64,000 nucleotides of DNA from Escherichia coli (GCF_017348835.2 NZ_CP071375.1); one strand, 5' to 3'; positions 7,874 through 10,301 are shown, numbered from the stretch's first letter. Notes: generated from the letters alone by a model not told the origin. Numbers and translations are program-made.

Positions 7874-7880
7874 TTACGAT

Positions 7881-7914
7881 GCCGGGCGTGGGTTGTTGGC
7901 GTCCGGCTTTATTT
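7881..7914 (+). terminator. Putative yegP terminator hairpin (8-bp stem with one GU) followed by TTTATTT
   Basis: Inverted repeat gccgggcg...cgtccggc 8 nt after yegP stop, followed by a T-rich tract. Confidence 0.4.
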
Positions 7915-8013
7915 CCAAATAACGCTTATTTATTTACCTGCGCCATTAAAATAGTGGACACTGATGAATACTCATTGTGCTTTCTTTGTTTAACATCTCC
8001 ATGCTTATCCTCC

Positions 8014-8025
8014 TGAACATGTTCA
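8014..8025. promoter_or_regulatory. Perfect 12-bp palindrome TGAACATGTTCA upstream of the parD-like gene (candidate operator)
   Basis: Read directly in the sequence; located about 90 bp upstream of the antitoxin start in an AT-rich region. Confidence 0.3.
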
Positions 8026-8116
8026 TCTGCCAAAATATCTTCTAATACTTTTCGTGACGCTATCCGGTTTATGACATACACTGATGTAAGATTTTTACTT
8101 ACAGGAGAGCATAAAC

Positions 8117-8368
8117 ATGGCCAGAACGATGACGGTTGATCTCGGCGATGAGTTGCGTGAATTTATCGAGTCCTTAATTGAATCCGGCGACTATCGCACC
8201 CAAAGCGAAGTGATCCGTGAGTCACTGCGCTTACTTCGAGAAAAGCAAGCAGAGTCTCGCCTGCAAGCGTTACGTGACATGCTTGCAGAAGGGTTGAGTA
8301 GTGGTGAAGCTCAGCCGTGGGAAAAGGACGCGTTTTTACGGAAGGTGAAAGCAGGGATAAGGAAATAA
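8117..8368 (+). CDS. ParD-family (ribbon-helix-helix, COG3609-like) type II antitoxin (83 aa)
   Basis: AGGAGAG RBS at 8103-8109; translation carries the ParD-like motif GDYRTQSEVIRESLRLL; stop 1 nt before toxin start. Confidence 0.75.
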   Translation: MARTMTVDLGDELREFIESLIESGDYRTQSEVIRESLRLLREKQAESRLQALRDMLAEGLSSGEAQPWEKDAFLRKVKAGIRK

Positions 8369-8369
8369 T

Positions 8370-8666
8370 GTGCGTATTATTAAACTCATGCCAAAAGCCA
8401 ATGAGGATTTAGAAGGCATCTGGTATTACAGTTATCACCATTTCGGCGAACCACAAGCCGACAGATATGTGGAACATCTTTCAGACGTTCTCCAGATTCT
8501 GAGTAACAATAATATAGGTACGCCCAGACCTGAATTAGGCGAAGGTATTTTTGTTCTTCCTTTTGAACGCCACGTAATTTATTTCCTGCAATCACCAGGG
8601 GAAATTATCGTCATTCGTACCCTTAACCAAAACCAGGACGCCACCAGACATTTACACTGGAGCTAA
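8370..8666 (+). CDS. ParE/RelE-superfamily type II toxin (98 aa from GTG 8370; alternative ATG at 8388)
   Basis: Small protein with ParE-like conserved pattern (DL..I..Y...FG...A..Y......L..L...P..G.P...LG.G.....F.RHVIYF......I.VIR.L....D); tightly coupled to the upstream antitoxin gene. Confidence 0.72.
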   Translation: MRIIKLMPKANEDLEGIWYYSYHHFGEPQADRYVEHLSDVLQILSNNNIGTPRPELGEGIFVLPFERHVIYFLQSPGEIIVIRTLNQNQDATRHLHWS

Positions 8667-8768
8667 ACCCGCCGATTGCGCTACAATGCCCGCCCTTAAA
8701 GTGGGGGCACTCCCCTAACCGCTTCATCAGGTGAAGCGGATCTGACCTGTCATCAGAACGAGAGAATT

Positions 8769-10130: not shown

Positions 10131-10214
10131 TTAATTTCGATTATTTTTCCCGGATGGAAAATTCTTAGAAACCGATCACATACAGCTGCATTTATTAAGG
10201 TTATCATCCGTTTC

Positions 10215-10301
10215 GCTGAAAAACATAACCCATAAAATGCTAGCTGTACCAGGAACCACCTCCTTAGCCTGTGTAATCTCCCTTACACGGGCTTATTTTT
10301 T
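10215..10301 (+). ncRNA. cyaR: CRP-dependent Hfq-binding sRNA CyaR (RyeE)
   Basis: Sequence GCTGAAAAACATAACCCATAAAATGCTAGCTGTACCAGGAACCACCTCCTTAGCC... ending in a hairpin and T-run matches my memory of CyaR, including the CCTCCTT anti-SD-like seed; located downstream of yegQ as in E. coli. Confidence 0.85.

Follow-up and report, generated by a model that had tools for sequence, protein, structure and literature searches.

A chromosomal ParD/ParE-type toxin-antitoxin pair in the yegP-yegQ interval of Escherichia coli and the varied history of its site

What lies between yegP and yegQ in an Escherichia coli strain for which the original prediction had proposed a small ParD/ParE-like cassette at 7874-8700, and how might it act? 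The interval belongs to a stretch of 64,000 nucleotides of E. coli DNA (GCF_017348835.2, NZ_CP071375.1), hereafter the window, from whose first letter all positions are counted. The two genes found there form a ParD/ParE type II toxin-antitoxin module, real but ordinary, whose family, architecture and annotation are already known, RefSeq naming them 'ParD family antitoxin' and 'RelE/ParE family toxin'. A 2025 review gives ParDE in E. coli as a plasmid system only. The list of open reading frames (ORFs) of the window contains, on the + strand, a frame of 83 aa starting with ATG at 8117-8368 (parD) and one of 98 aa starting with GTG at 8370-8666 (parE). The parD stop codon TAA occupies 8366-8368 and is followed by a lone T at 8369 and by the GTG of parE at 8370, thus confirming the predicted spacer of one nucleotide. 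Each gene has its own Shine-Dalgarno sequence, AGGAG at 8103-8107, 9 nt ahead of the parD ATG, and AAGGA at 8359-8363, 6 nt ahead of the parE GTG, and parD stands directly 5' of parE with both genes on the + strand, which is the type II layout. The leader was also AT-rich as predicted, with 34.7% G+C over 213 nt (7907-8119) vs about 51-58% in the flanking genes. Two further ORFs of this region were dismissed, a minus-strand frame of 51 aa at 7926-8081, within which two 1-nt indels between alleles fall, and a frame of 45 aa at 7879-8016, which overlaps the yegP terminator. The defence models of PADLOC-DB 2.0 matched neither protein at E ≤ 0.01.

The family assignment of the antitoxin was clear. 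ParD, predicted as a ribbon-helix-helix (RHH) antitoxin of ParD type, matched PF03693 over residues 1-78 (E 4.7e-19) and TIGR02606 with 88.4 bits against a cutoff of 46.2, which bears out the prediction, together with a weak match to RHH_1 (0.0034). Among solved structures its best match was PrpA (PDB 7YCS, E 1.9e-27), followed by VcParD2, CcParD1 and MtParD1, and the DNA-reading N-terminal beta-strand RTMTVD is identical in PrpA. ParE matched PF05016 with E 2.5e-12, residues 4-90 aligning with positions 1-88 of the 89 of the model, while no NCBIfam model matched it. A search of a representative library returned 1,602 relatives of the toxin at E ≤ 1e-3; an alignment of 111 sequences built from this search was used as input to AlphaFold2.

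The resulting ParE model had a predicted local distance difference test score (pLDDT) of 91.7 and the order beta-alpha-alpha-beta-beta-beta, with predicted helices at residues 8-25 and 27-46 and predicted strands at 60-65, 68-74 and 78-86. When the model was compared with the PDB by Foldseek, the top 22 matches were all ParE toxins, with template modelling (TM) scores, normalised by query length, of 0.88 for PrpT and 0.83-0.84 for MtParE1, VcParE2 and CcParE1. The same four proteins were the matches by sequence (PrpT 6.4e-12, MtParE1 1.6e-7, CcParE1 6.4e-7, VcParE2 3.6e-6). The claim of a ParE/RelE-fold toxin is thus supported by the nearly full-length PF05016 match and by a ParE-like predicted fold. 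To our knowledge, ParE toxins have no defined catalytic site or residues, and the structural check concerned the fold, which is present in the model. RelE and ParE toxins belong to one superfamily and the RefSeq name is generic, and one may ask whether the protein is instead a RelE-like, ribosome-dependent mRNA endonuclease and no gyrase poison. This we regard as hardly credible, as no sequence match to the structures of RelE, YoeB, HigB or YafQ was found, the TM scores to RelE, YoeB and YafQ were only 0.47-0.68, and the model shows the long N-terminal alpha-hairpin of ParE type.

Several known systems resemble the pair. The closest characterised relative, and the best structural match for both proteins, is PrpT/PrpA of the Pseudoalteromonas rubra megaplasmid pMBL6842 (7YCS/7YCU; PMC7848731, PMC9731233), which shares the PF05016/PF03693 pairing, the gene order, the RTMTVD strand and a TGTAA core upstream. 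Identity is about 61% for the antitoxin by our own count and about 32% for the toxin, and PrpT keeps a His where the present toxin has Asn86. Moreover, PrpTA is plasmid-borne and PrpA also binds the iterons of the origin, limiting copy number, whereas the present pair is chromosomal. A copy-number control of this type was rejected for the present cassette, which is chromosomal in all 1,844 genomes that contain its upstream region, with no replicon nearby and with its candidate operator repeat occurring once in 64 kb. Caulobacter ParDE1 (3KXE), Mycobacterium tuberculosis ParDE1 (8C24) and Vibrio cholerae ParDE2 (7R5A) have the same fold and a PF03693 antitoxin; their toxins are 26-30% identical to the present one and differ from it in having Trp for Phe25 and His for Asn86. 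More distant are ParDE of RK2, a ParE-fold type II module far removed in sequence whose ParD belongs to PF09386 (PMC7848731), and PaaA2-ParE2 of E. coli O157, a three-component prophage system with an unrelated antitoxin, in which ParE2, distant in sequence, reaches a TM of 0.76-0.77.

Outside the chromosomal copies of Escherichia and Pluralibacter gergoviae, the closest relatives are ParDE pairs of large plasmids of Salmonella, Klebsiella, Citrobacter and Pantoea (pRM11065-1, pC9_001, pDSJ09), with toxins 63-65% and antitoxins 82-85% identical to those of the window. The first 54 residues of ParD from Klebsiella aerogenes pC9_001 are identical to those of the chromosomal ParD, and the same candidate operator repeat precedes the start codon in these plasmid pairs. 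They differ in that the plasmids are often conjugative, ParD has 88 aa and ends in another C-terminal tail, and a 14-nt overlap of parD and parE takes the place of the 1-nt spacer. No plasmid with a near-identical copy of the cassette was found, the two 'plasmid' hits at 98% being chromosome-sized records of 1.4 Mb and 4.8 Mb. ParDE-I (YacA/YacB) of IncI/IncF resistance plasmids, which shares the ParDE name, is common in Enterobacteriaceae and has an SOS-inducing toxin, was also considered as a source of the cassette and rejected, since it belongs to another subgroup, about 15% identical to CcParE1 by the authors' figures (PMC6614396).

If ParD represses its own operon, where does it bind? The best candidate for a ParD operator is an inverted repeat, TGTAAG-N7-CTTACA, at 8085-8103 (no strand assigned). 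Seven cassettes from four genomic contexts were compared, namely those of the window, the majority E. coli allele, Escherichia whittamii, P. gergoviae and the Salmonella, K. aerogenes and Pantoea plasmids, and in all seven this repeat is the sole conserved block upstream of parD. Its conserved form is TGTAAGAT-N5-nCTTACA, located just ahead of the Shine-Dalgarno sequence, with GTAAGA and CTTA invariant and the rest nearly so. The repeat occurs once in the window and was matched in 0 of 100 shuffles. PrpA protects 30 bp across the -35 and part of the -10 element, with the motif TTTG(T/A)AAT (PMC7848731); the 5-nt core TGTAA is the sole overlap between this motif and the arms of the repeat. A scan with the PrpA motif gave a single site with one mismatch, located in the terminator tail (7911-7918), and no convincing site besides.

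The original prediction had placed the binding site of ParD elsewhere, at a perfect 12-nt palindrome, TGAACATGTTCA, at 8014-8025 (no strand assigned). The palindrome is indeed present, unique in the window and shared by all four Escherichia alleles, even though identity among them over the entire upstream region is no higher than 83-87%. Nevertheless it lies 92 nt 5' of the parD ATG, is unlike the PrpA motif, and is missing ahead of parD in the cassettes of P. gergoviae, Salmonella, Klebsiella and Pantoea, which encode ParD proteins with near-identical DNA-binding domains. Its mere existence is weak evidence, because 6.6% of shuffles of the 213-nt leader hold such a palindrome. By eye, it does not seem to fit the consensus sites of LexA, CRP, FNR or Cra. 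An operator role for the palindrome is therefore given a slim chance, and comparison of the upstream regions makes the repeat at 8085-8103 the likely ParD operator; tests of autoregulation would be better aimed at it than at the palindrome.

A hexamer resembling a -10 element, TAAGAT, was read from the sequence within the left arm of the repeat (8087-8092, + strand). As the plasmid homologs hold TTGAGT-17-TAAGAT at the equivalent position, we infer that this hexamer would be the -10 of the parDE promoter.

Taken as a whole, the pair is quite probably a chromosomal type II toxin-antitoxin operon of the group that combines ParE with a PF03693-type ParD, in which ParD would repress its own operon and ParE would poison DNA gyrase. 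According to this proposal parD and parE would be co-transcribed from a weak promoter with TAAGAT, within the left arm of the 8085-8103 repeat, as its -10. ParD dimers, alone or with ParE, would bind the repeat through their N-terminal beta-strand and repress the operon, while the C-terminal half of ParD would wrap around ParE and neutralise it, as suggested by the solved complexes 7YCS, 3KXE, 8C24 and 7R5A. Should ParD be degraded and not replaced, free ParE would poison DNA gyrase, leading to DNA breaks, SOS induction and growth arrest. The gyrase step is proposed by analogy, since its relatives CcParE1, MtParE1 and VcParE2 are documented gyrase poisons (10.1101/2025.07.24.666505; PMC10203498).

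A number of observations weigh against this reading of the locus. The word 'gyrase' is absent from both PrpT papers (PMC7848731, PMC9731233), so that the target of the closest characterised toxin is unreported. The literature searched (yegP/yegQ with ParE, the RefSeq protein accessions, chromosomal E. coli ParDE) contained no study of the locus and no experimental work on it. A sigma-70 consensus scan found no + strand site upstream of parD, TAAGAT falling below the threshold.

The annotation itself raises a doubt on parD. In the record of PE164, 100% identical to the window, the Prokaryotic Genome Annotation Pipeline (PGAP) flags the ParD coding sequence as 'frameshifted' over the equivalent of window 8071-8368, and, compared with the majority allele, the window allele does have one more C, at 8116. 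RefSeq annotates the ParD of the majority allele as 98 aa from an upstream ATG (8071 equivalent). The corresponding over-long gene models, 'frameshifted' or of 98 aa, are at L002 3198-3495 and L003 1709-2005. If the flag were right, parD would be a pseudogene in the present strain and the module broken. The extra C, however, precedes the ATG at 8117 and breaks solely the 15-codon N-terminal extension of the 98-aa annotation. The Pfam match starts with the first residue of the 83-aa ORF, the start MARTMTVD is common to PrpA and three plasmid ParDs, and the plasmid parD frames are closed by a stop four codons upstream of it. Furthermore, E. whittamii has the same extra C, and the supposed extension covers the conserved repeat and the Shine-Dalgarno sequence. 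For these reasons a broken parD is considered very improbable, and the true start is probably 8117, the flag and the 98-aa model being artefacts of an over-long start. The artefact affects the present allele (about 100 genomes) as well as the 98-aa majority model in RefSeq.

The remaining points against an active poison concern the toxin residues. Position 86 is Asn in the present ParE and His in 95 of the 111 aligned homologs, position 84 is Thr in the present allele only and Val or Ile in 106 of the 111, and position 25 is Phe, vs the Trp25 of VcParE2, the key toxicity residue there, for which only Tyr substitutes fully (10.1101/2025.07.24.666505). Since Asn86 and Thr84 depart from the family consensus, the potency of the present allele, as judged from its residues, is uncertain. 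Of the substitutions, those in parD speak for the operon, as none of the 3-4 codons changed within E. coli was nonsynonymous, and 1 of the 9-12 changed relative to E. whittamii. Those in parE count against it, the nonsynonymous fractions of changed codons being 1/3, 5/7 and 5/13, proportionally more than in parD. By these counts parD is under tighter constraint than parE. Over larger distances, too, conservation of the antitoxin is roughly double that of the toxin, as the PrpA and PrpT identities given above illustrate.

The departures from consensus in ParE and the tighter constraint on parD leave room for an attenuated toxin or for a role centred on ParD, both of which we rate as unlikely. 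The former would be a domesticated or decaying cassette with an attenuated or inactive ParE, in which the locus would persist mainly thanks to ParD, acting as a repressor or as an 'anti-addiction' antidote to related plasmid ParE. Besides residues 84 and 86, it would account for the far better conservation of ParD than of ParE relative to the plasmid homologs, up to the 54 N-terminal residues identical in pC9_001, and it agrees with the loss of the toxin in other lineages that keep a ParD fragment. It also agrees with the P. gergoviae copy, located between alr and tyrB (L008 2748-3297), whose ParD start is ATA and whose toxin frame is interrupted by a stop codon and a frameshift while its candidate operator repeat is intact; this copy appears from its sequence to be inactivated. 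On the other side, parE is an uninterrupted ORF in all full cassettes examined and in large protein clusters, and the predicted fold is a confident one. ParE keeps the nearly invariant positions A10, D13, I17, A30, Y33, H68, R83 and L85 as well as the majority residues D90 and H94, and close plasmid relatives have Ser86, indicating that His is not required in this subgroup. We thus hold decay or domestication to be unlikely, though it has the best case among the alternatives to a working operon.

A second possibility, appreciably less likely still, is that the chromosomal ParD is kept mainly for its interaction with plasmids, repressing plasmid parDE and neutralising plasmid ParE while its own toxin drifts. 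Such repression and neutralisation are conceivable because ParD shares its 54 N-terminal residues with the ParD of a conjugative Klebsiella plasmid and because the candidate operator is the same; by analogy with PrpA, ParD could also affect plasmid replication. If true, this role would also account for the roughly twofold higher conservation of the antitoxin over the toxin, which runs opposite to the reported trend in ParE systems. The autorepressed ParD/ParE operon described above remains the preferred reading, and nothing here alters existing knowledge of ParDE systems.

How widespread is the cassette, and how did it come to this site? It was found at yegP-yegQ in 1,843 of 5,426 complete E. 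coli genomes (34%), always in single copy, and its upstream region in 1,844 genomes, in every case on the chromosome and in none on a plasmid. Nothing lies between yegP and yegQ in BL21(DE3), O157:H7 and, in agreement with the original prediction, K-12, and the pair is accessory, not core. An alignment of the interval from five strains, including K-12, placed the cassette-specific segment at 7908-8677 (770 bp, + strand), against 21 nt in K-12; the predicted span of 7874-8700, while containing the cassette, was slightly generous. The strain therefore has one type II toxin-antitoxin module more than K-12, in an interval whose content differs between E. coli strains, and the importance of the finding is mostly local. 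The upstream allele of the window is itself a minority form, found at 99% identity or more in only about 100 genomes, while 1,737 carry an allele 90-95% identical to it, from which the window differs by a 13-bp indel and three 1-nt indels, including the extra C at 8116.

The ends of 7908-8677 showed no direct or inverted terminal repeats and no target-site duplications, and no integrase, transposase or other mobility gene flanks the cassette, so that no mechanism of insertion can be named. The 21 nt at the empty site of K-12 look unrelated to the cassette and loosely resemble the 3' end of parE (about 15 of 21 by eye), a resemblance too short to tell insertion into an ancestral, K-12-like site from a loss in K-12.

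Relatives and relics of the cassette complicate the picture of a small insertion. A search of a single genome from each species, able to detect only close relatives, gave three loci. In the sister species E. whittamii the full cassette is present in the same baeR-yegP-parD-parE-yegQ context, with DNA identities to the window of 96.4% for parD and 95.3% for parE vs 90.0% for baeR, 86.2% for yegP and 93.0% for yegQ. At this site Escherichia sp. E1V33 has the left end together with the 3' half of parE but no parD, and the third locus is the P. gergoviae copy described above.

Within E. coli, 298 complete genomes, including Nissle 1917 and the uropathogenic (UPEC) strain 26-1, have an island of four genes in the slot. 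The island measures 4.7 kb (L013 14919-19634 in UPEC 26-1, on the opposite strand; identical in Nissle 1917) and encodes a hypothetical protein and DUF4034, DUF1266 and PcfJ-domain proteins. Its borders are the left stretch of the cassette and exactly the 30 nt of 8648-8677. The former (7908-7957, + strand, its right edge approximate) is retained in the UPEC 26-1/Nissle-type island strains and in E1V33, where the toxin-antitoxin genes have an internal deletion; the latter (+ strand) comprises the last five codons of parE, the stop codon and 11 nt more, and persists as a relic in strains devoid of the toxin. As the plasmid toxins end in the same C-terminal motif, HL(H/N)W, this retained tail is read as a remnant of parE and not as native intergenic DNA.

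About 97 further genomes, all devoid of the toxin, carry a HEAT-repeat gene in the slot, sometimes cut by IS1, and 3' of it first a ParD fragment and next the parE tail (L014 732-1200; L015 206-1205; L016 7216-8985). The ParD fragment has 52 aa, is diverged (62% identical) and is devoid of the DNA-binding strand, and in KFu023 and CFS3246 a stretch near-identical to 8648-8677 comes right after the truncated ParD. The HEAT-repeat state represents what is left, without the toxin, of an older or different cassette allele. The yegP-yegQ slot is thus an old polymorphic site, where some lineages have the whole module and others have it decayed or overwritten. The predicted 'small accessory insertion' stands as to accessory, while 'insertion' oversimplifies the history of a decaying slot. 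With its intact, toxin-deleted and replaced states, the slot is a natural series in which the decay of chromosomal toxin-antitoxin modules can be followed.

Finally, sequence signals next to both neighbouring genes differ between the window and K-12. A terminator-like hairpin follows yegP at 7881-7915 (+ strand), with a stem formed by 7881-7888 and 7900-7907 and the T-rich tail TTTATTTC. The terminator scan had reported an inner stem at 7895-7907 together with the tail, and inspection of the sequence gave the longer stem. The T-rich tail, from 7908 onward, is cassette DNA, and in K-12, where it is missing, no terminator-like call was obtained after yegP. On the other side, K-12 has a promoter-like site, TTTACC-17-TACAAT, just 5' of yegQ/trhP (L001 1537-1565; 9 of 12 matches, with 0.1 expected by chance). 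Its -35 element falls in the 21 nt replaced by the cassette, while TACAAT persists in the window at 8682-8687. No promoter-like site on the + strand and no terminator was found in the window between parE and yegQ (8648-8690). Since the cassette removes the K-12 -35 and neither a promoter nor a terminator intervenes between parE and yegQ, these signals suggest that yegQ may be transcribed differently in strains with the cassette, possibly by read-through from parDE. The cassette thus parts yegQ/trhP from its K-12 promoter-like site, and expression of this tRNA-modification gene may differ between strains with the cassette and strains with an empty slot.

The yegQ leader (8703-8739) contains two hairpins, conserved in all strains compared, which matched no Rfam family: a GGGG-loop-CCCC structure at about 8703-8715 and a perfect 8-bp stem, CCGCTTCA/TGAAGCGG, at 8719-8739. 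The Rfam scan likewise returned nothing inside the cassette, its only hit being the small RNA gene CyaR (RyeE; RF00112, 100.7 bits) at 10213-10298, downstream of yegQ as expected.

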